Both the position numbers and the translations under genes were made by a program. Shown piece after piece: positions 6,786-18,532 of a stretch of 20,000 nucleotides of DNA; position 1 is the first letter of the stretch, and each line of letters opens with the position of its first letter. The notes under the pieces were generated by a model. The model made no database searches, was not told the origin of the DNA, and saw only the letters and a program-made list of their open reading frames with translations. The DNA is from an uncultured virus (IMG/VR IMGVR_UViG_3300035034_002688) (taxonomy: Duplodnaviria; Heunggongvirae; Uroviricota; Caudoviricetes): the IMG/VR virus record IMGVR_UViG_3300035034_002688; one strand, 5' to 3'.

Positions 6786-7436
6786 TCAAAACGTCAGCCG
6801 CCACGTCAGCGTGAGCCGCGCCGTGGCCGGCTTGTTGATCACGGGGAACGTCAGATAGTTGCACAACATATCACTCCCCGTCACGTCGACGGCCGCATCA
6901 TACGCCCCGTTGGCCGGAAGGATCGGGTTGGTCACGGAGAGGTCCTCGTTTACGTCACCACCAATCAGCCCCATCTCCACGAGCGTACCGACCGCCTCAC
7001 TTTGAGCGAACGTCGCCGTGAAGTCGATCACGTTGGTAGGGTAGAGAACCGGTGATCCGCCCGAATCTACAAAAGTCGTGGACGAGAAGGTCTTGCGTGA
7101 CAGCTCCGAGTAGAGGGAGCGCTGCGTGTTCGTCTCGGCGGGAGGGTTCTGGAGATCCCAGCCCACATCTCCCGTGCCAATCGCCAGCGCGTAGATGCCG
7201 TGGCGGGGCTCCAGGGGGTTGACCGCCAACCGCGCCAGAAGAAGGCTCAGGTCGAGCGTGACCACGTTGTGCACCTCGAAGGTCTCCACGCGGCCGTCGT
7301 CATGCTCCAGGCGAAAGAACACATTTCCACGGATACCCTGCTTACGCTTGCCGAGGTATCGGTCCTCATAAAGAGAGCCGAGCGCGGACCGCGCCGAAGC
7401 GACCAGGGCACGGAGCTTGTCTTGGTAGGTGGGCAT
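6786..7436 (-). CDS. Putative baseplate/tail-collar-like structural protein (216 aa)
   Basis: Likely start ATG 7436 (MPTYQDKL...) with GAGG upstream; the ORF-track extension to 7727 runs through the CRISPR array. Motifs NVVT, ALAIGTG, EAVGTLVEMGL and TFPVINK...LTWRLTF are typical of phage tail-collar/baseplate-proximal proteins. Confidence 0.75.
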   Translation of the reverse strand: MPTYQDKLRALVASARSALGSLYEDRYLGKRKQGIRGNVFFRLEHDDGRVETFEVHNVVTLDLSLLLARLAVNPLEPRHGIYALAIGTGDVGWDLQNPPAETNTQRSLYSELSRKTFSSTTFVDSGGSPVLYPTNVIDFTATFAQSEAVGTLVEMGLIGGDVNEDLSVTNPILPANGAYDAAVDVTGSDMLCNYLTFPVINKPATARLTLTWRLTF

Positions 7437-7454
7437 GGCGACAATGACCTCAAA

Positions 7455-7494
7455 TGTAAGAGACTCGGGGCGGTTACACTCCGAGTCTCTTACA
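7455..7494 (-). terminator. Perfect 14-bp inverted repeat; possible terminator or insulating hairpin downstream of the CRISPR array
   Basis: TGTAAGAGACTCGG (7455-7468) / CCGAGTCTCTTACA (7481-7494). On the minus strand it is followed by TTT and then the GAGG RBS of the 216-aa gene; the U-tract is short. Confidence 0.5.
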
Positions 7495-7585
7495 AGTGAA
7501 TTAGAGAAGCCCCTACGCCGACGGCTCAAGCACCTCCGCGATACATTCGCAAAGGTCGTCACAGAAGACCGGCCCCCCGTCCTGC

Positions 7586-7979
7586 GGGAACATCCCCACG
7601 TGCGTGGGGAAGGGACCTGATGCCCGCGCGTCATGATCTCGGCCACGGGGACATCCCCGCGTGTGCGGGGAAGGGTCGTGTGCCCCCTTCGCGAAGGTCT
7701 TTCCGACGGGGACATCCCCGCGTACACGGGGAGGGGCTAGCGGCCTCACCCGCGCCCGTTGAATGGACGGGAACATCCCCGCGTGTGCGGGGAGGGGCTC
7801 TAGGATACTATGATACTTCTTTTCAAAGTGGGAACATCCCCGCGTGTGCGGGGAGGGGGTGCCTGCGGCTCCCGCGAGGCTGACGAAGCTGGGGACATCC
7901 CCGCGTACACGGGGAGGGGGACGGCTCGACCGGGACAGCCTCCGGGACCGGGGGACATCCCCGCGTACACGGGGAGGGG
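7586..7979 (-). CRISPR. Orphan CRISPR array, 7 x 29-bp repeats, 6 spacers (5 x 32 bp, 1 x 31 bp), type I-E-like
   Basis: Repeats start at 7586, 7647, 7708, 7769, 7830, 7891, 7951 (period 61/60). Minus-strand repeat CCCCTCCCCGCACACGCGGGGATGTTCCC aligns without gaps to the E. coli I-E repeat GTGTTCCCCGCGCCAGCGGGGATAAACCG, with a 7-bp stem and 4-nt loop. Spacers are unique; the most divergent repeat is leader-distal. Confidence 0.97.
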
Positions 7980-8130
7980 TCTGTGCCAAGAAGTCACATG
8001 AGCGGAATCACGTAAGTATTCGGTTTTCAAAGACTTTCAGAGTCCAGTGCCAAACAAGGTCACCCTTGGGCGACACTCTCGACGTCCTTATGGTAACCTT
8101 GAGGGTGGAGGCGTGTCAAGAGAAATCCCA
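7980..8130 (-). promoter_or_regulatory. CRISPR leader with sigma70-like promoter and boxA-like element
   Basis: Minus strand: TTGACA (8119-8114), 18 nt, TACCAT (8095-8090), then GTCTTTGAAAAC (8034-8023) about 45 nt before the first repeat. Region is AT-richer and non-coding. Confidence 0.7.
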
Positions 8131-8133
8131 AGC

Positions 8134-8463
8134 TCACAGCTTCCGAAGAATCGTACGTGAGGTCGCGTCCCCCACGATGGTACAAAGATCAAGCCCGACC
8201 CTCCTGAACGACCTCTGGATCTCATCGTCTGTGATGTTTTCAGGGAGCTTCCAGTCCCTCTGGTCCCACATCACCTTCGAGATTTGAGCGCCTAGAGGAG
8301 TCTCCAGATCCTCTTCGCTACGGATCAGGGCGAGGTCCCCCATGAGCAACTCCAGACCTTCCTTATCGGTCTGATCTCCTGATGCCGTGTACGCGTCGTA
8401 GATGCTGGCGGCGGCGCAGTAGATGGGGTCCGTATACGTGGCGTTGGCGTAAACGTAGGACAT
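8134..8463 (-). CDS. Hypothetical acidic protein (109 aa)
   Basis: ATG at 8463 (MSYVYANATY...) with AGGAG RBS at 8475-8471 and the repeated promoter-like motif just upstream. Confidence 0.75.
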   Translation of the reverse strand: MSYVYANATYTDPIYCAAASIYDAYTASGDQTDKEGLELLMGDLALIRSEEDLETPLGAQISKVMWDQRDWKLPENITDDEIQRSFRRVGLDLCTIVGDATSRTILRKL

Positions 8464-8486
8464 GTCGTATCTCCTGTAGTGTCGGA

Positions 8487-8531
8487 TTGTCTTGCACACT
8501 CTATATACCACAAGCATGGTGGTTCGTAAAA
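8487..8531 (-). promoter_or_regulatory. Repeated promoter-like motif, copy 1
   Basis: TTTTAC-N11-CTTGTGGTATATAGAGTGTG; 8487-8514 matches 9128-9155 at 27/28 nt. Confidence 0.7.
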
Positions 8532-9191: not shown

Positions 9192-9587
9192 TCAGGCCTT
9201 GCGCCGCTCCATGGCCAGAACAGCCTCACGGTCGATGCGCTCGGACTGGCGGGCCTTGAGGTAGGCACGAGCGCGGGTCACCACTGCGAGGGTCGGGTGC
9301 TTCTTGCACGCGAAGAACAGGACCTCCACGATCACCGGGTCTTCGAGTCGCACGGTGTCGCACGCGTCGAGGACCGTCTTGGAGAGCATGAGCGTCACCA
9401 GATCCTCATCCAGGACCTGAGGATCAAGGACCGCGCGAAGGCACAGCATCACCAGCTCACGGGGGTCTCCCAGGGCGAACTGTATCGTCGCCTCCGAGAA
9501 GTTCAAGGCGTCGGGCTTGACCATGCTCGACATGACGTCATGCAGGCTATCAGGAGAGAGGGATGCTTTGGCTCGGAGTAGTGCCAT
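9192..9587 (-). CDS. Hypothetical alpha-helical protein (131 aa)
   Basis: ATG 9587 with AAGAGG RBS; Leu/Ala-rich; no recognised motif. Confidence 0.7.
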   Translation of the reverse strand: MALLRAKASLSPDSLHDVMSSMVKPDALNFSEATIQFALGDPRELVMLCLRAVLDPQVLDEDLVTLMLSKTVLDACDTVRLEDPVIVEVLFFACKKHPTLAVVTRARAYLKARQSERIDREAVLAMERRKA

Positions 9588-9616: not shown

Positions 9617-10018
9617 TCAGGAGTTCTTGACAGCGGCTCGAATCAGCTTGCGCATGCCGACGACGCCCTTGATGCCCTTGCGACCGCGACACGCTGCGAA
9701 GAATCGCTCGACATGTACGGACCGGTCCTTCCCCTGCAAGGACGCACAGGCCTCGATCAAGACCTCATTGGTGAAGAGCCCCATGAGCACGGCCTGATCC
9801 GCATCCTCATCGCGCATCAAACGCGTCGCCGCCTCCACAAGCTCCAGGGACGTCAGCTCGGGCAACGGTTGAAAGAGGTCAACCGTGCTGGTCAGAGTCT
9901 GTAGAGCTGCATGCACCAGCGTGGCCGGAGACAGACCCGTCTTCTGCTGGAGCGAGGAGAGGAGTTGCTGCACCTCTGAGGGCAGCGTGAGAGAGACGAG
10001 AGGTTCTTTGGCAGACAT
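9617..10018 (-). CDS. Putative DNA-binding protein with N-terminal ribbon-helix-helix (CopG/Arc-like) segment (~133 aa)
   Basis: LVSLTLPSEVQQLLSSLQQKTGLSPATLVHAAL fits the RHH pattern (alternating hydrophobic strand, helix, G-x-S turn, helix). Start is ATG 10018 or TTG 10024; RBS is weak. Confidence 0.55.
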   Translation of the reverse strand: MSAKEPLVSLTLPSEVQQLLSSLQQKTGLSPATLVHAALQTLTSTVDLFQPLPELTSLELVEAATRLMRDEDADQAVLMGLFTNEVLIEACASLQGKDRSVHVERFFAACRGRKGIKGVVGMRKLIRAAVKNS

Positions 10019-10089
10019 GGGCAACTCACGGCTTGAGGGAGGTTCTCAAAGGGTATCTTGCTCGGGCGGTGACCCTGCAAGTGAGACTC

Positions 10090-13100: not shown

Positions 13101-13956
13101 GGCGAAAGAGAGAGGCGAGCCCCTGAGAGTTGTCCACTCCTGTAGACACGTCCTCGATGATGTAGAGGCTGTCTGGCGAGGTGAACGCAGGCGCGCCGAG
13201 CGTGGGGCCCGTATAGGTGAAACCCTCCGGGTGGTCGTCACCCTCAAAGAACACGGCCGTGGGGAGCGTGTTTCGCTGGAACGGAGGCAAGGAGCCACGA
13301 AAAGACGGCTCGTTGAGCACGAGAGACGTGGGATCGTTCAGGACAGCGCTGTACTCATAGTCAAACGCCGTCCACTGGTGACCGATCACCTGCGGCTGGG
13401 GTGCTTCGTAGGGCGCCAGGACCGTCTGGAAGGGGAACGGGTGGCCTTGGGCGTTGGAGCCGTACTGGTTGAGCAGGTAGTTCGAGTTGTTGAGCGCTGC
13501 GAATGGGATGGTCGGGTTAGAGACGTAGCTGTAGTCGAGCAGGACCACATCCCCCGGATCAAGCAGGTCATCCAGGACGATGATACCGGCCACCGGGTCT
13601 ACAGCGAAGACCACGACCTCCACGCCATTGACCTGGACAGTCACGTCCTCGATGTCTGCAAGCTCACCGGAGCCGTCCCCCGTCGTCAAGGGGCCAAACT
13701 CGGTATAGATCAGCGTCGTCTCGAACGGCGTGATCGGCCCTCGGGAGATCAAGTACCCCGAGGTCGCCACGCTCATGAGGTCAACGTTCGCCCAGACACC
13801 ACGTGTAGGCAGAGAGGACCCCAGGGGCCCCGCGTTGAAGACCTCAACCGGAATCAGGGCCGCGAGCCCGGAGTCGGTCGCGGAGATCTTGGCCGCCGCC
13901 CCTTGCGGATTTGGCCTACGGTGGACCGTAGGGAAACTAAACGTCAAATCACTCAC
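10126..13956 (-). CDS. Large putative virion/baseplate structural protein (1276 aa)
   Basis: Very long acidic, beta-rich ORF; GTG start overlaps the TGA of the upstream gene (GTGA coupling); recurring LNxxxxxLN motifs. Confidence 0.75.
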   Translation of the reverse strand: MSDLTFSFPTVHRRPNPQGAAAKISATDSGLAALIPVEVFNAGPLGSSLPTRGVWANVDLMSVATSGYLISRGPITPFETTLIYTEFGPLTTGDGSGELADIEDVTVQVNGVEVVVFAVDPVAGIIVLDDLLDPGDVVLLDYSYVSNPTIPFAALNNSNYLLNQYGSNAQGHPFPFQTVLAPYEAPQPQVIGHQWTAFDYEYSAVLNDPTSLVLNEPSFRGSLPPFQRNTLPTAVFFEGDDHPEGFTYTGPTLGAPAFTSPDSLYIIEDVSTGVDNSQGLASLFRRVLDLTFEQTSTLNWRTRVLSYTADGVFTGLGAGWADTERAYLTGFLELSGSFRTVGVLTSAGDETLAESWSGLTATVEAPLGVNTSLRFTGEPPLIVGSRIWSEGVIYTVLDVDDEGVDGYDVTVDVAFPSLGPVNLFVEADFTQLTSYRAAKSPTGDLEVFGFGFAPALARVAEVDAAVAPEIFSLLRQNSVFFGSLSRRAVNESGWDFVRYSVLPAQGREVARRVSVDTDMTVLPEADDPPWYVSQNQGWAGTLAGGLVQSQSAGQPLVGGGYNWVRIEPFIQESNLYEVSFRVRVSAWASGLAATVTLADATREAVVSLFDGGTPAQFQGADTLSKLTQGFWSQVNPISLATRGYLNGYNAPIIGDAFLYGYGGVTSPEDAGFTSTFDPNELSYLDHRLRITHDGVLADASAVEVGKGSITDWVCQTRFSVLDYTLDVDGLCPLRFGVDDGEFEIYLAPYDDGTPQLVLVDGAGSLVLDGGSVVGLTYDWQVEGLQNVKMVRTGDNLTVFVDGVYLGLIDVLVAPASGSADVSARFGVLDGQGTFEVDYFVAHQAAHEPRQVGLLTGSGSLLDASQYDVEDAEFFGSFLEVRLRVHTTSTVDVYLGGSATPALSVPYLDLPLRSDREGVDTDFGYIQFGTLDPQAYTEAQWDYVRYEIVNQREDQRTLPHAYLNQSNTLTSPEPTEDLDPEIVEITPYTSQILRVGQVGMFADRILSVTSQDGLTSYTFTYDRDTNEITLATPLTDLETALKVTLFHRKPYTKAYLKNNRPVIRLGEGTPPFALTHQATFTATEEFDDTLNDPLDRLLGNGDYAITEDGVTVVFRRDADAFLASLDLCSESVLGTTGLLSAACDSLCDIALLDPYEDVYTIPEQDDYLRHRGQILHLNDVDTVLNTPGANLLCLSAAVLVECEVVEEDALGAVTDEALTGGASVYSDFYGSSLLNNLKATLNAPVAQVGEPDSVIFTANSITSVDTNIDFTTPVNFP

Positions 13957-15041
13957 GGCTCACGTACCATCGTGTAAGAGGTCAACTGGTTGTCGGGATT
14001 GTAGACCGCCACGATCGTGTAGGTCTCCGAGACGTTGGTATCCGCCAGCACGTCGGCCCTTGAGGGGTACAGTCTCACCGTCGCCCCCGTCAAGTTGTTG
14101 CTGCCGTCGTACGTCTGCCCCGTCAAGCTGAAGTTCTCATGGGTGAGTCCCAGGATGCGCGTCGTCGCCTCCGTGATCGCATCCACCTTCCCATCAAGGG
14201 CCGTGACGTCACCCTGAAGCGTCGTCACGTCCGTAGTCAGCGTCCCAACGTTCGTAGTCAGCGTGCTGACGTCTGTTGAGATCGCGGCTACGTCCGTTGA
14301 GAGCGTCCCCAGGTCCGTACCGGTGTTGGCACTCAAGACCTGCAAGGAGTCTGTGAGCGTATCAAAGCCCGCGCCTTGGATGTCCGTGACCTCCAGCGCG
14401 AGAGCATCGACCTTCCCATCGGTCGTGGCGATGTCCAGAAGAGCCGTGTCGACGTTGCCGTCCACGACTGCGAGATCTGAGGTCAGAGTGTCGACCTTGC
14501 CGTCCGTGGTCGCAAGGTTCGTGAGGACTGTATCGACCTTGCCGTCCGTAGTCGCAATGTCCGTGAGGACCGTAGCGATGTCCGTGAGGACCGTATCGAC
14601 CTTACCATCGGTAGTCGCGAGGTCAGTGAGGAGGGTATCAACGTTGGCATCCACGACCGCAAGATCGGTGAGGACCGTATCGACCTTACCATCCGTGGTC
14701 GCAACCTGAGCGCTCACGTCGTCCAGGACGTTGGCGGCGATGCTCGCGGAGAGGTTGTACTGGTCGAAGGTGCCCAGAGCCAGAGGGTCCTTGAAGGAGA
14801 TCACCAGGAGGCCGAGCGTGTCGGTCTCCCCGGCTCCCAGATCCACGGCGTAAATCCCCGGCATGTTGGCCGCGCTCAGCTCCGTGAAGTTGAGACCCGT
14901 CAAAGCAAACGCAGCCGGGACGCCTCCGTCCTTGGATACGTAGGCCTCCACGTCTGTGTCGGTGAGCCCCGTTACAGACGTGCCGCCTGCTGCCAGAATG
15001 ATCACCACAGTCGCGGCGGTGGATTGCTTAAGCTGAAGCAT
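13953..15041 (-). CDS. Putative fibre/whisker-like virion protein (362 aa) with heptad-repeat stalk
   Basis: GAGGAG RBS; N-terminal domain (ELSAANMPGIY), long 7/14-aa repeats (TTDGKVDTVLTD(L/I)A), and a C-terminal domain paralogous to the 1157-aa protein. Confidence 0.75.
   Translation of the reverse strand: MLQLKQSTAATVVIILAAGGTSVTGLTDTDVEAYVSKDGGVPAAFALTGLNFTELSAANMPGIYAVDLGAGETDTLGLLVISFKDPLALGTFDQYNLSASIAANVLDDVSAQVATTDGKVDTVLTDLAVVDANVDTLLTDLATTDGKVDTVLTDIATVLTDIATTDGKVDTVLTNLATTDGKVDTLTSDLAVVDGNVDTALLDIATTDGKVDALALEVTDIQGAGFDTLTDSLQVLSANTGTDLGTLSTDVAAISTDVSTLTTNVGTLTTDVTTLQGDVTALDGKVDAITEATTRILGLTHENFSLTGQTYDGSNNLTGATVRLYPSRADVLADTNVSETYTIVAVYNPDNQLTSYTMVREP
14195..14705 (-). repeat. 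Imperfect 21/42-bp coding tandem repeats (coiled-coil heptads)
   Basis: Recurrent GTGAGGACCGTATCGACCTTACCATC-like units encoding DGKVDTVLT and LTTDV repeats; boundaries approximate. Confidence 0.75.
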
Positions 15042-15058: not shown

Positions 15059-18000
15059 TCAGGCGCGGCGGATAGAGTAATCATCGAGTCGGTTGGACAC
15101 GTCATACACAGCCTCAAGTACGTAGGAGGCGATCGCGTTCGTCTCGTTGGCCACGTCTACAGCGGTGGGATAGGTGCGGATCGTGGCACCGATGAGGTTA
15201 CCTGAGCCATCATACGCGTGGTCCGTGATCCTAATGTTCTCCTGGCTGAGTCCCAGGATGCGAGTAATGAGGATCTGAATCTCCCCAAGGTCCGTCGAGA
15301 TCGCCCCAACGTCCGTGGTCAGGGTCCCAACGTCCGTGGTCAGCGTTCCCACATCGGTTGAGATCGTTCCTACCTCCGTGGTCAGCGTCCCCACATCCGT
15401 GGAGAGCGTCCCCACGTCTGTTGAGATCGCCGTCACATCACCCTGAACGGCGGTGAGGTCCGTCTGAACCGTCCCCACATCCGTGGAGAGCGTCGAGATC
15501 GCCGTGGACTGCGTGTCCGCGCCGTCACTCAGGATCTTGAGCGAGTCTGTCGCCGTGTTGAAGCCCGCACCCTGTATGTCCGTCAAGGCGTCCGTAACGG
15601 GGGAAAGATCCACCGCAGCACCTGACGTGACCCGATAGCGCAGGGTCACGGGATCTATCGCCGCCGAGAGTGCGTCAATGCGCAGGATGTAGACGTCACC
15701 ATCGGACTGTCCCGTGGCCCATAGCACTCCGTTGGCGCCATCAATCGAGTCCAGATCCGCGACGGGAGGTCCTGCCGTGATCGCATCCACTACGCCCGAA
15801 GACTGCCACGTCGTGCCGCCATCCTGCGTATACAAGACCACCCCCGCAGCTCCCACGACCCACGCCTGCGTGGTCGACACCGCGATCACCCCGTTGAGGG
15901 TAGTCGCCACTCCGGAGGTTTGAGCGCTGAAGCTCGCGCCTCCGTCCACCGTCTTGAAGATCTGCCCGTTCTGCCCCACGACCCAACCCGTCAAGGTACC
16001 AGACACGAAGTCCACGTCGGTAAGAATGTCTGTGGTTGGCATGGGGACTGTCGCCCACGACGCACCCGAGTCATCACTGCGAATCGCGAATCCGTCCGTG
16101 GTGCCATCGTTACCAACTGCCAGGATGGTCCCGGAGAGCTGAGCATCAATGCCCGTGAAGAACTGGCCGAAGGAACCCAAATCCCCTTCATTGTAGAGCA
16201 CGACCTGGAGGTTCGCATTCACCGTTCGATCGACGACGACCACGTTACCTCCCGCGACTCCATAGAAGAGCTGCGTAGAGGGCGCGGCCATGTCTCGAAT
16301 TGACGCGAAGACCGCAAACGAATCCTCCGTGGCGAGATCAAAGTTAGCTCCTGCGTCGTCTGAGAACGAAATGTAAGGCTGGCCCGAGTCCTCCCCGCCT
16401 ACCAGGAGGAAGTCCGTACCAGGGACACCCTGAACACAACGGTCCGTGAAGTTGACCCCCCCAAGGCTTGTCCAGGCCGTACCGCCATTGATAGTCGAGA
16501 TAACCTCTCCACCTCCAAAGCCGTTGCCCCTCGCGATGTACGCGACCGTATTGGAGACCGCGTACACGCCATTGCCTGAATCCTCCACGCCCCCAGGATC
16601 GGACTGCTGCTCCGCGTTCGTGATCGCCAGACCTCCAGCTCGAAGATCAAGCACGAGGTCTCCCGCGACGTTCGTATCCCCCACGCCCAAGGTGACGGAG
16701 TACCAACCGGGAAGCGCCGCGTCGTCCAGCTCCGTCAACGTCGTGTTGACCGTGTTGACCGCCGAAGCCCCCGCCTTGAACAGAAGGCTCGTGAGGGCGG
16801 ACCCGCTTACGCCCGTGTTCGGCTCCCCGTCTCGGGAGAGGTAGAGCGTAGACACGTGCTCAGTCTCAATATCCAGGACGTACCCAGGACGCTGACGAGA
16901 CAGCTCCGCTCGGAGCGTGCCGATCACCGTATCAAGGGCGCTTGCCGGCTCCAGCTCCACCCACAACCTCGCCGCGTCGAAGTCTGCCGCCTGCTTACCC
17001 AGCTCCAGCCTGTCACCTGTGTTCGCTTGCGGCAAGAAGACCGCCGAGTCTGCCACGTACGTGTCCTGAATCGTCAGGCCAATCGCGGCCGCCTCAGGAG
17101 GTACGCTAAAGGTCGCGCCCGCGTCATTGGTGTAAATGAGCGTACCCGACTCGCCCACCACATACGCCTCAGTCGCGCTGACCATGTGCACGCCGGTCAA
17201 GGCCTGAACCGTGCCCGTGTTGGCCGTCACGTCCGTCCAGTTGTCTCCAGTATCGGTCGTGTAGATCACCGTTCCGTTGTCGCCCACCGCGAATCCCGAA
17301 CCCGAACCCGGAAACAGATGCACGGCTCGAAGGCCGTCAACAGCCGGGAGGACTGAGGGTGCAACCAGAGCGAACCCTCCCGTAGCGCGCCGGACATACG
17401 CTGCGCCGCCGCCCGTCTCCCCAACCAGCACGATCGAGTTGGAGGTAGGCACGTCCACGTCATAGACCTCAATACCCACGTGCGTCGAGCTGGCGGACAA
17501 GATCGGGGAGAAGAACGCCCCCTGATAGAGAATCCCATCGCCCCCGGCAGTCTGGCCGATCACGAAGAAGGCCGTACCTCCCGGCTGAACCGCACAACGC
17601 CGCGTCGTCGTGAGGGTCGCGGGAGCAAAGAAATCAACAGCCTCCGTCCAGGTCTCCCCGCCGTCTTCCGTGTAGTACGCAAATCCCAGGTCGCCGTTTG
17701 ACTCCCACGCCGCGACCACGATGCGGTCCGGATCTTCTACGTCACCAGCTACACCAGAAGGCCTCTTCGTGAAGCCGCCACCCGATCGAAACTCGATGTT
17801 GGTGAAGGTATCCCCACGGTCCGACGAGAAGGCCACCTGATCCGTATCAAAGAAGTCCGTCACCCAGACGTCCACGGCATTGCGCGTACGGGAAGCCGCC
17901 CACACCGACGTTGCCGAGGTCAACGAGTAGCCAAGGTCCACCAGATCACGTGGGATCGGGTTCAGTGGCCGCACCTGCGTCACGACCGTTCCCGGCTCCT

Positions 18001-18532
18001 GCGTGAAGGCATCCCCCAGGGTCACCGTGTAGAGACCCTGACCCACCTCAGTGAGCGAGTCGAACACCGTGTTGACCGCCGACGTGCCGTTGATTACGAC
18101 GTCCGTTGACACGGAGGCCCCCGTAAGGCCCGTCACAGCCGTCCCATCTCTTACCAGGGGTACGAGCAAGGTCAGCTCGCTGCCGACCGTCTCCGAGCGA
18201 GTATAGAGGCTCTCACCCCCTGCGACGGATGCCCCGATCTGAAGCGTTTGCGTGTACTGCGCCACACCGGAAGCGCCAACCTCCGTGATCACAAAGGTGA
18301 ACTCCCCTCGCGTGTCGAACTCCAGAGCGGTAAACGCCACCTCATACACGCCGGGCATGTTGGTCGCGTCCAGCTCCGCGAAGTTGTCGGAGGTGAGCGT
18401 CTTTTCAACGGGCGAGCCCGCGTCTTTGCGGTAATAGAGGGCAACGTCTGCGGCCACCAATCCCGTCAAGGGGGCGCCCGCCGCGTCGACGAGTAGCATG
18501 GACACCGTGTCAGCGGAGTTGAGCGCGCGCAT
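15059..18532 (-). CDS. Putative tail fibre/receptor-binding protein (1157 aa) with BNR/Asp-box (YCF48-like) beta-propeller repeats
   Basis: Nine (S/T)xxxGxx(W/F) Asp-box-like motifs (SSDRGDTF, TEDGGETW, TTDTGDNW, TNDAGATF, TINGGTAW, SDDAGANF, SDDSGASW, TVDGGASF, TQDGGTTW) with AVGDNG/VVGQNG blades; C-terminal heptad repeats; GAGGA RBS. Confidence 0.75.
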   Translation of the reverse strand: MRALNSADTVSMLLVDAAGAPLTGLVAADVALYYRKDAGSPVEKTLTSDNFAELDATNMPGVYEVAFTALEFDTRGEFTFVITEVGASGVAQYTQTLQIGASVAGGESLYTRSETVGSELTLLVPLVRDGTAVTGLTGASVSTDVVINGTSAVNTVFDSLTEVGQGLYTVTLGDAFTQEPGTVVTQVRPLNPIPRDLVDLGYSLTSATSVWAASRTRNAVDVWVTDFFDTDQVAFSSDRGDTFTNIEFRSGGGFTKRPSGVAGDVEDPDRIVVAAWESNGDLGFAYYTEDGGETWTEAVDFFAPATLTTTRRCAVQPGGTAFFVIGQTAGGDGILYQGAFFSPILSASSTHVGIEVYDVDVPTSNSIVLVGETGGGAAYVRRATGGFALVAPSVLPAVDGLRAVHLFPGSGSGFAVGDNGTVIYTTDTGDNWTDVTANTGTVQALTGVHMVSATEAYVVGESGTLIYTNDAGATFSVPPEAAAIGLTIQDTYVADSAVFLPQANTGDRLELGKQAADFDAARLWVELEPASALDTVIGTLRAELSRQRPGYVLDIETEHVSTLYLSRDGEPNTGVSGSALTSLLFKAGASAVNTVNTTLTELDDAALPGWYSVTLGVGDTNVAGDLVLDLRAGGLAITNAEQQSDPGGVEDSGNGVYAVSNTVAYIARGNGFGGGEVISTINGGTAWTSLGGVNFTDRCVQGVPGTDFLLVGGEDSGQPYISFSDDAGANFDLATEDSFAVFASIRDMAAPSTQLFYGVAGGNVVVVDRTVNANLQVVLYNEGDLGSFGQFFTGIDAQLSGTILAVGNDGTTDGFAIRSDDSGASWATVPMPTTDILTDVDFVSGTLTGWVVGQNGQIFKTVDGGASFSAQTSGVATTLNGVIAVSTTQAWVVGAAGVVLYTQDGGTTWQSSGVVDAITAGPPVADLDSIDGANGVLWATGQSDGDVYILRIDALSAAIDPVTLRYRVTSGAAVDLSPVTDALTDIQGAGFNTATDSLKILSDGADTQSTAISTLSTDVGTVQTDLTAVQGDVTAISTDVGTLSTDVGTLTTEVGTISTDVGTLTTDVGTLTTDVGAISTDLGEIQILITRILGLSQENIRITDHAYDGSGNLIGATIRTYPTAVDVANETNAIASYVLEAVYDVSNRLDDYSIRRA
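15284..15505 (-). repeat. Imperfect 21-bp coding tandem repeat (TL(S/T)TDVG heptads)
   Basis: Units such as CCCAACGTCCGTGGTCAGGGT / CCCACATCCGTGGAGAGCGT repeat about ten times; boundaries approximate. Confidence 0.75.

Follow-up and report, generated by a model that had tools for sequence, protein, structure and literature searches.

The last 20,000 nucleotides (nt) of the uncultured-virus record IMGVR_UViG_3300035034_002688 (IMG/VR; Caudoviricetes; here G000, 125,429 bp, 27% complete by CheckV estimate) contain a short CRISPR array, designated A4. That whole stretch is referred to as the window, and coordinates are those of the window unless another record is named. A4 is very probably an outlying array that feeds a type I-E Cascade-Cas3 system encoded by the phage itself. 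The original prediction, made from the window, was of a Cas-less, orphan array. It is refuted by a type I-E cas operon, lacking only cas1 and cas2, that lies 56 kb away on the same contig (56.4 kb from cas3 to A4).

G000 carries one minus-strand cas operon, located by a Pfam search of 110 further open reading frames (ORFs) followed by PADLOC and NCBIfam searches of the region (Table 1). It encodes the signature proteins Cas8e (Cse1) and Cas11e (Cse2), together with Cas7e, Cas5e, Cas6e and Cas3. The two signature proteins share a single ORF of 735 amino acids (aa), in which residues 580-729, or more narrowly 597-728, match Cas11e (E 1e-08; TIGR02548 at 38 bits vs a cut-off of 28.5). Alignment of Cas3 with 4q2c finds the HD, HHG, GxGKTE and DEVH motifs in place, and the glycine-rich loop at the C terminus of Thermus Cse3 is retained in Cas6e (compared with 1wj9 and 2y8w); judged by gene and loop, Cas6e would be the cognate Cas6e of the arrays on G000. 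The absence of cas genes from the flanks of A4 is true within the window, where none of the 15 ORFs scanned against Pfam and PHROG matches a Cas family, and is only an effect of the window's size. The orphan reading fails because a cas operon on the same replicon is the very finding that had been set beforehand as decisive against it.

What that reading asserted in functional terms, that A4 supplies CRISPR RNAs (crRNAs) to a host type I-E Cas6e and Cascade for an attack on competitors or the silencing of host genes, or else serves as an RNA decoy, is now quite unlikely, even though the nearest sequence is free of cas genes for 7.5 kb on one side and 12 kb on the other. Virus mini-arrays that use host systems, and RNA anti-CRISPRs that mimic repeats, are documented (PMC11656645, PMC10651486). 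The core of the repeat is also common to many bacterial I-E arrays: it recurs in 70 plasmid records and, in a repeat-pattern scan of one genome for each of 185,579 species, in 63 stretches, mostly of Actinomycetota, with others from Deinococcus, Deltaproteobacteria, Verrucomicrobia, Kiritimatiellae and metagenome-assembled genomes of Lentisphaerales. None of these species genomes has an identical array repeat, however; the nearest consensus is off at 2-3 of 29 positions, and the A4 leader is shared by none, no match to it exceeding 11 nt. A decoy would not need as many as six spacers of exact I-E length. The claim that A4 has to rely on a Cascade from the host, or else work as a decoy, is unsupported, since Cas6e, Cascade and Cas3 are all encoded on this contig along with their cognate arrays; a host I-E system may be used in addition to the phage's own. 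As to who that host is, Actinomycetota make up most of the Cas7e clusters that come nearest in the Atlas, which is only a lead, and the phage's IF-1 homologue has relatives of ~75% identity across several phyla and is not decisive.

As befits a type I-E array, A4 itself alternates spacers of ~32 nt with ~29-nt repeats that have a tetraloop on a G+C-rich stem of 7 bp. The seven repeats and six spacers of the original prediction are confirmed down to the ends of every spacer; a repeat search of the window gives start-to-start spacings of 61, 61, 61, 61, 61 and 60, and the spacers are 32 nt in five of six cases and 31 nt in the other (7920-7950). Read on the minus strand, the repeat is CCCCTCCCCG(C/T)(A/G)(C/T)ACGCGGGGATGT(C/T)CCC, which matches the UCCCCGC-NNNN-GCGGGGA hairpin of type I-E repeats. 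R1, R2 and R5 are CCCCTCCCCGTGTACGCGGGGATGTCCCC; R3 and R4 have the loop GCACAC and the tail GTTCCC; R6 is the variant that occurs in array A2 and R7 has the A-U stem variant typical of array A3 (sister arrays that are introduced below). As minus-strand RNA, each repeat of A4 folds, at -12.2 to -14.3 kcal/mol, into a stem of 7 bp and a loop of 4 nt, and three repeat variants folded to the same stem-loop with z-scores of -2.3 to -3.3. Stem pairing is kept in 98.5% of cells over the 19 distinct repeat variants of the phage: one pair has changed doubly from G-C to A-U in five variants, the terminal repeat of A4 among them, and another is U-G in six. These wobble pairs exist only on the minus-strand RNA; the transcribed strand is thus set independently of the promoter. 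The I-E hairpin, minus-strand orientation and phage context that had been proposed for the array are borne out, as is the 8-nt AUGU(U/C)CCC handle, which would follow from the I-E Cas6e cleavage rule. A scan of 60 kb with Rfam returned nothing at gathering score and, at E <= 1, only a chance-level match in the array.

Counted from the leader, the repeat variants of A4 follow the order a, a, b, b, a, c, d; the differences between them lie in the tail and at three loop-stem positions, and the variants found in A4 dominate A1, A2 and A3. Stepwise copying of repeat 1, considered as the origin of A4, cannot yield this order. The mosaic is, to judge by the repeats, explained by exchange of repeat-spacer blocks between the phage's own arrays. 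The G+C content of the spacers is 62-77% in five and 31% in the third (7737-7768), the phage as a whole standing at 61%; the low value hints at a different source for that spacer.

An A+T-richer leader with a promoter lies upstream of repeat 1. Between 7200 and 8600 the single sigma-70-like site is TTGACA-N18-TACCAT, with 10 of 12 positions matched; shuffled sequence yields 0.5 such sites, so that the A4 site alone is not significant. What supports the proposal that the leader has its own promoter is conservation in all six paralogous leaders. The ~170-nt promoter-leader of A4 (class 1) is common to A1, A2 and A3 and to two arrays of a second viral fragment (G001), the six leaders aligning at a mean column identity of 69%. 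TTGACA is unchanged in all six, and in the -10 hexamer the T, the A and the final T are invariant while the inner bases vary (TACCAT, TACCGT, TACAGT); the stretch between the hexamers has diverged. The hairpin GTCGCCCAAGGGTGAC is kept in four of the six and replaced in the other two by a tandem repeat of GAGCGGTG. Promoter and leader are probably under selection, mainly because hexamers and junction blocks are held strictly amid sequence that has drifted. A second class of leader, unrelated to the first and ending in TGAACATTTGAAGA, precedes A5 and the solitary repeat at G000 27752.

Table 1. Positions of array A4, its leader and neighbors, the cas operon and the sister arrays (window coordinates unless G000 is named)
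Feature	Position	Strand	Remarks
CRISPR array A4	window 7586-7979	minus	7 repeats of 29 nt, 6 spacers
A4 repeats	7586-7614, 7647-7675, 7708-7736, 7769-7797, 7830-7858, 7891-7919, 7951-7979		29 nt each
A4 repeat order	R1 = 7951-7979; R7 = 7586-7614		R1 leader-proximal; R7 terminal
A4 spacers, from leader	7920-7950, 7859-7890, 7798-7829, 7737-7768, 7676-7707, 7615-7646		
Leader-repeat junction block CATGTGACTTCTTGGCACAGA	7980-8002	minus	abuts repeat 1; nearly invariant in 6/6 class-1 leaders
Conserved leader block GAAGTCTTTGAAAACCGAATACTTACG	8011-8036	minus	24/26 columns invariant among 6 leaders
Small hairpin GTCGCCCAAGGGTGAC, then CTTGTTTGG	8059-8074	minus	in leader transcript; terminator- or attenuator-like
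Promoter	8090-8119	minus	-35 TTGACA (8119-8114), 18-nt spacer, -10 TACCAT (8095-8090)
216-aa gene downstream of array	6786-7436	minus	phrog_5417, unknown function, E 6.5e-20
13-bp perfect hairpin GTAAGAGACTCGG ... CCGAGTCTCTTAC	7456-7493	minus	between array and next gene; preceded by motif AATTCACTTGTAAG
Three small ORFs	8134-8517, 9192-9587, 9617-10024	minus	upstream of leader; no Pfam, PHROG or G002 tblastn match
cas3e	G000:C1 53984-56614	minus	PADLOC E 3.3e-140
cas7e	G000:C1 52490-53836	minus	PADLOC E 9.3e-59
cas6e, 243 aa	G000:C1 51682-52413	minus	PADLOC E 6.8e-24; TIGR01907 72.4 bits vs cut-off 45.2
cas5e	G000:C1 50907-51653	minus	PADLOC E 4e-42
cas8e::cas11e, one 735-aa ORF	G000:C1 48658-50865	minus	residues 4-500 = Cas8e, E 7.3e-21
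Array A1	G000 22770-23416	plus	class-1 leader
Array A2	G000 57295-57628	minus	class-1 leader; solitary repeat at 57800 nearby
Array A3	G000 59761-60358	plus	class-1 leader
Array A5, 8 repeats	G000 48083-48538	minus	second leader class; 120 bp downstream of fusion gene
Single repeat-like hairpins	G000 27752 and 52456		

A4 is one of five arrays on G000; in that record as a whole the repeat units in crRNA orientation number 46, and the spacers, which are 24-32 nt long, number 34. The second fragment, G001 (127,707 bp, 29% complete), carries a nine-repeat array with A4's leader, the leader with a single repeat, and a two-repeat array of the second class; what G000 and G001 share is only leaders, arrays and one or two short stretches. 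A relative of the phage, reached by way of the fusion protein, is complete: G002 (437,490 bp, direct terminal repeats, rated 100% complete) has the order cas3, cas7, array, cas6, array, cas5, cas8::cas11, array, and 63-64 repeat units in about 20 clusters, all on one strand, at 13-31 kb, 110 kb, 123-128 kb, 149 kb and 405-408 kb. Its leaders carry the junction motifs of both classes, TGTGAC...CAGA (found upstream of five of its arrays) and TGAACATTTGAAGA; the leader-repeat junctions are conserved between genomes that are only about 50-75% identical in protein. Colinear matches of 66 of 121 G000 proteins to G002 (at 403-437 kb and 1-94 kb), and matches of all 20 tested G001 proteins (at 132-277 kb), make G000 and G001 fit one genome type. 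A2, A3 and A5 have positional counterparts near the G002 cas genes; A1 and A4 do not.

The size of the phage is that of a huge phage (>200 kb). An exact search of a metagenome collection with the leader-proximal spacer found one place, on a contig of 365,960 bp whose 99.95% identity to the window over 2031 bp marks it as the same phage, and the fusion protein is recorded on a contig of 373,477 bp. Viral marks are Baseplate_J on G000, an HK97-type capsid match (PF05065) that exceeds the cut-off in both G001 and G002, the ten tRNA genes of G001, the usual accessory genes of huge phages and the terminal repeats of G002; the terminase families PF17289 and PF03237 have no match in any of the three. 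The habitat is lake water: the stretch was found in two DNA metagenome runs from two studies, with the phage at a depth of ~16x in one and two pieces of the stretch at 2-3x in the other, and no spacer variant appeared.

The second of these runs bears on the reading of A4 as a decaying duplicate, a non-functional copy of the cassette that was spread by recombination and has no present role. In favor of it, G002 does not conserve the site of A4, the array mixes repeat variants that predominate in other arrays, some units in sister arrays are broken, and no target has been found. The reading is nevertheless unlikely: the hairpins are intact in seven of seven repeats, with compensatory and wobble changes only; the spacer lengths are exact; the hexamers and junction blocks are invariant next to leader sequence that has diverged; and two pieces of the stretch in the second run, which comes from another study (7747-7919 and 7948-8167, covering two spacers and the leader), have no changed letter.

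An array that feeds the phage's own interference system would act as follows. A4 would be transcribed on the minus strand from its sigma-70-type promoter, as the conservation of the latter suggests. The phage Cas6e would then cut the precursor at the 3' base of each 7-bp hairpin, by the I-E rule, protein and hairpin both being present, and release 61-nt crRNAs in which a 32-nt guide stands between an 8-nt AUGUYCCC 5' handle and a 3' hairpin of 21 nt. These would be loaded into a phage Cascade of Cas7e, Cas5e, Cas6e and the fused Cas8e::Cas11e, which, if the genes and motifs that are present confer the expected activity, would recruit the phage Cas3e helicase-nuclease and destroy matching DNA. 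By analogy with other huge-phage systems, the likely targets would be competing phages, other mobile elements or host DNA.

Several observations weigh against this scheme. The catalytic histidine of Cas6e is unaligned in the comparison with 1wj9 and 2y8w, and the fused Cas8e::Cas11e may or may not supply the two Cas11 copies of a canonical Cascade. The metagenome records list no RNA run for the stretch, both runs that contain it being of DNA. A1 and A3 have irregular units (partial repeat duplication, gaps of 24-56 nt), which amounts to some decay. The array regions of G000, with all 34 spacers, have no spacer-specific match in 50,697 GenBank phage records; A4 has only repeat-to-repeat matches among plasmids, to I-E arrays of Streptomyces, Acetobacter and Thermus plasmids; exact IMG/VR scans with 4 of 43 spacers found nothing; and the 43 spacers of G000 and G001 match nowhere in G000, G001 or G002 themselves. 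Cas2 (PF09707) has no match in G000 or G001, by a weak control that was over the cut-off in 1 of 14 genomes, and cas1 and cas2 could lie in the remaining third or so of the genome, G000 and G001 together amounting to 253 kb of at least 366 kb.

Other spacer searches gave the same kind of result. Spacer 1 of A4 matches only the phage itself in metagenomes, and the 27 class-1 spacers have no second match in G000 within six substitutions. The 43 spacers of G002 match neither G000 nor G001, so that targeting of these related viruses was not found. GenBank matches near 90% fall on the GTTCCT simple repeat behind A3, and others fall downstream of A1 or on repeats; none is a spacer match.

Where new spacers come from is a separate question. 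Cas1 (PF01867) has no match in G000, G001 or G002, with a control that was positive in 9 of 14 known genomes, and within G000 and G001 no cas1-cas2 adaptation module was found. With no cas1 or cas2 in 253 kb, and no cas1 in the complete 437-kb relative, new spacers would most likely arrive through a host adaptation complex that acts in trans on the conserved leader-repeat junction. A broader and tentative proposal, possible rather than probable, is that this phage lineage has no integrase of its own yet keeps a family of mobile promoter-leader-array cassettes. The junction would be a docking site for host I-E Cas1-Cas2, spacers would be farmed in trans, repeat-spacer blocks shuffled and cassettes seeded at new sites such as that of A4; arrays placed among virion genes or in the cas operon would tie the supply of guides to stages of infection.

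The fusion of Cas8e to Cas11e is rare but not unique. A phmmer search of 1.84 billion representatives gave 70 matches, of which three besides the query cover both Cas8e and Cas11e (726, 718 and 688 aa). These relatives emerged from the exhaustive search alone; a word search with Cas8e::Cas11e found only the protein itself, and peptide patterns found no relatives of Cas7e in IMG/VR. An in-frame ATG stands at residue 564 of the fusion, just before the Cas11e match and behind a purine-rich stretch, and could give free Cas11. The stretch between cas7e and cas6e (G000:C1 52420-52490) contains a repeat-like hairpin (CCTTTCCCCGCTCACGCGGGGGTCCCCTC) and, after it, another G+C hairpin that has a T-run; G002 has an array of 5-6 repeats at this place, and the repeat-like hairpin of G000 could be vestigial or could serve Cas6e as a site in the cas mRNA.

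Oddities also occur among the sister arrays. A1 contains a repeat with an internal 21-nt duplication (G000:C1 23128-23177), and a GTTCCT pentamer-like run follows a degenerate A3 repeat (G000:C1 60127-60211), with a similar run at the end of A1. Solitary repeats that have a full or partial leader and no second repeat are found at G000:C1 27560-27780 and 57800-57828, at L080 401-430 and at G001 15180; these may be cr-like regulatory RNAs or repeat decoys.

The genes that surround A4 had been taken for virion genes, an assignment that fits weakly: they include the phrog_5417 protein with its sub-threshold baseplate-wedge match, and coiled-coil, BNR-repeat and beta-helix proteins. The beta-helix protein extends into the window from upstream. 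At 15059-18532 a 1157-aa protein that combines BNR/Sortilin-type repeats with a coiled coil at its C terminus adjoins a 362-aa coiled-coil protein (13953-15041); both are conserved in the relative and may be fiber or decoration proteins. Immediately downstream of the array is the 216-aa gene, whose match to the baseplate wedge (E 0.0014) is below the Pfam cut-off and which has a homologue of 77% identity in the relative (tblastn to G002 85014-85556). An ORF of 6786-7727 that runs into the array is an artefact of start choice; the gene is 6786-7436. G000 and G002 have one copy each of motif AATTCACTTGTAAG, which lies upstream of the gene and, in G002, in the corresponding position before the orthologous gene. 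This rules the motif out as a general promoter motif and puts the A4 cassette upstream of a conserved gene-proximal element. At the corresponding site of G002 the orthologues of the 216-aa gene and of a 1276-aa gene are ~570 bp apart with one unrelated small gene between them; the array and the three small ORFs constitute a 2.7-kb block that is absent from G002.

This arrangement raises the notion that the leader promoter chiefly drives the 216-aa gene and that the repeats are elements of RNA processing or stability. The gene is on the same strand, its start is 150 nt from the last repeat with no T-run terminator in between, and the arrays inside the cas operon of G002 indicate that read-through from an array into genes is normal in the lineage. 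The G002 orthologue has no array or leader upstream, yet retains its own upstream motif, and a 13-bp hairpin separates array from gene in the window; the notion is highly improbable. A4 as a remote source of guides for the phage's own Cascade is retained.

Several features of the phage lie outside these questions. The long ORFs of the window are open under the standard code, and a tRNA with a CUA anticodon (amber suppressor type) is among the ten tRNA genes of G001 (L081 13973-14046). An intein that carries a LAGLIDADG domain interrupts the DnaB-like helicase (G000:C1 87714-90656), and a 421-aa protein of G001 (L084 5789-7054) has a match at E 5e-78 to Volactin, an actin-like family. Among the other proteins encoded by the phage are GroEL, Lon, gyrase B, RecA, IF-1, sigma factors and a histidine kinase.

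The canonical type I-E systems of E. coli K-12, Thermus thermophilus and Thermobifida fusca share with A4 and its operon the 29-nt repeat, the UCCCCGC-NNNN-GCGGGGA hairpin, 32-nt spacers and a 61-nt period, as well as homologues of Cas3e, Cas7e, Cas5e, Cas6e, Cas8e and Cas11e. The canonical gene order is cas3-cas8e-cas11-cas7-cas5-cas6e and the E. coli handle is AUAAACCG; the phage differs in its gene order, in the placement of Cas8e and Cas11e in one ORF, in a handle of AUGUYCCC, in having five or more arrays and two leader classes, and in that no cas1/cas2 was found.

Among mobile elements a close precedent is that of the huge phages, whose CRISPR systems (PMC7162821) almost all do without Cas1, Cas2 and Cas4 and have compact arrays with a median of six repeats; some of their spacers match other phages or host genes. 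The system of A4 resembles these in genome size (>200 kb), in an interference module without Cas1/Cas2 and in compact arrays (seven repeats here). It differs in being I-E, with the order cas3-cas7-cas6-cas5-cas8::11 and the Cas8e-Cas11e fusion, and in its many dispersed arrays, each with a copied promoter-leader; the types named in Al-Shayeb et al. 2020 (PMC7162821) are a type I-C variant, types II and V and Cas-phi, and the term 'I-E' is absent from its main text. Virus mini-arrays are defined as having 1-2 spacers, repeats identical to those of the host and no viral cas genes (Faure 2019, Medvedeva 2019, in PMC11656645). With these and with Racr RNAs (PMC10651486, PMC11656645) A4 has in common a short viral array far from cas, and solitary leader-repeats too; it differs from the mini-arrays in its six spacers, in that no identical host repeat was found and in having effector genes of its own. 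The plasmid-borne type IV-A3 systems, shown to use host I-E Cas1-Cas2 for spacers (10.1101/2023.06.23.546257, PMC11656645), are likewise an effector with arrays on a mobile element and no adaptation module (10.1101/2023.06.23.546257); they differ in effector type and in being on plasmids, not on a phage, where acquisition in trans is only an inferred step. Titles and abstracts returned by full-text literature searches mention no phage type I-E system, no Cas8e-Cas11e fusion and no case of this gene order with a promoter-leader cassette copied to many loci, which is not proof of absence from print.

The system of A4 thus fits a kind of huge-phage CRISPR that has already been described, with some unusual architecture. 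A view limited to the size of the window made the phage's own remote array look like an orphan, and the present finding corrects that misreading. What is notable in the architecture is a type I-E system without Cas1/2, a Cas8e-Cas11e fusion, two leader classes, arrays set between cas genes (in G002) and the copying of cassettes to new loci. Tool builders, too, could take an interest in the compact effector set and the natural multi-array layout. If the leader-repeat junction is indeed a landing pad for host adaptation enzymes, it would show how a phage's CRISPR memory is kept current without an integrase.

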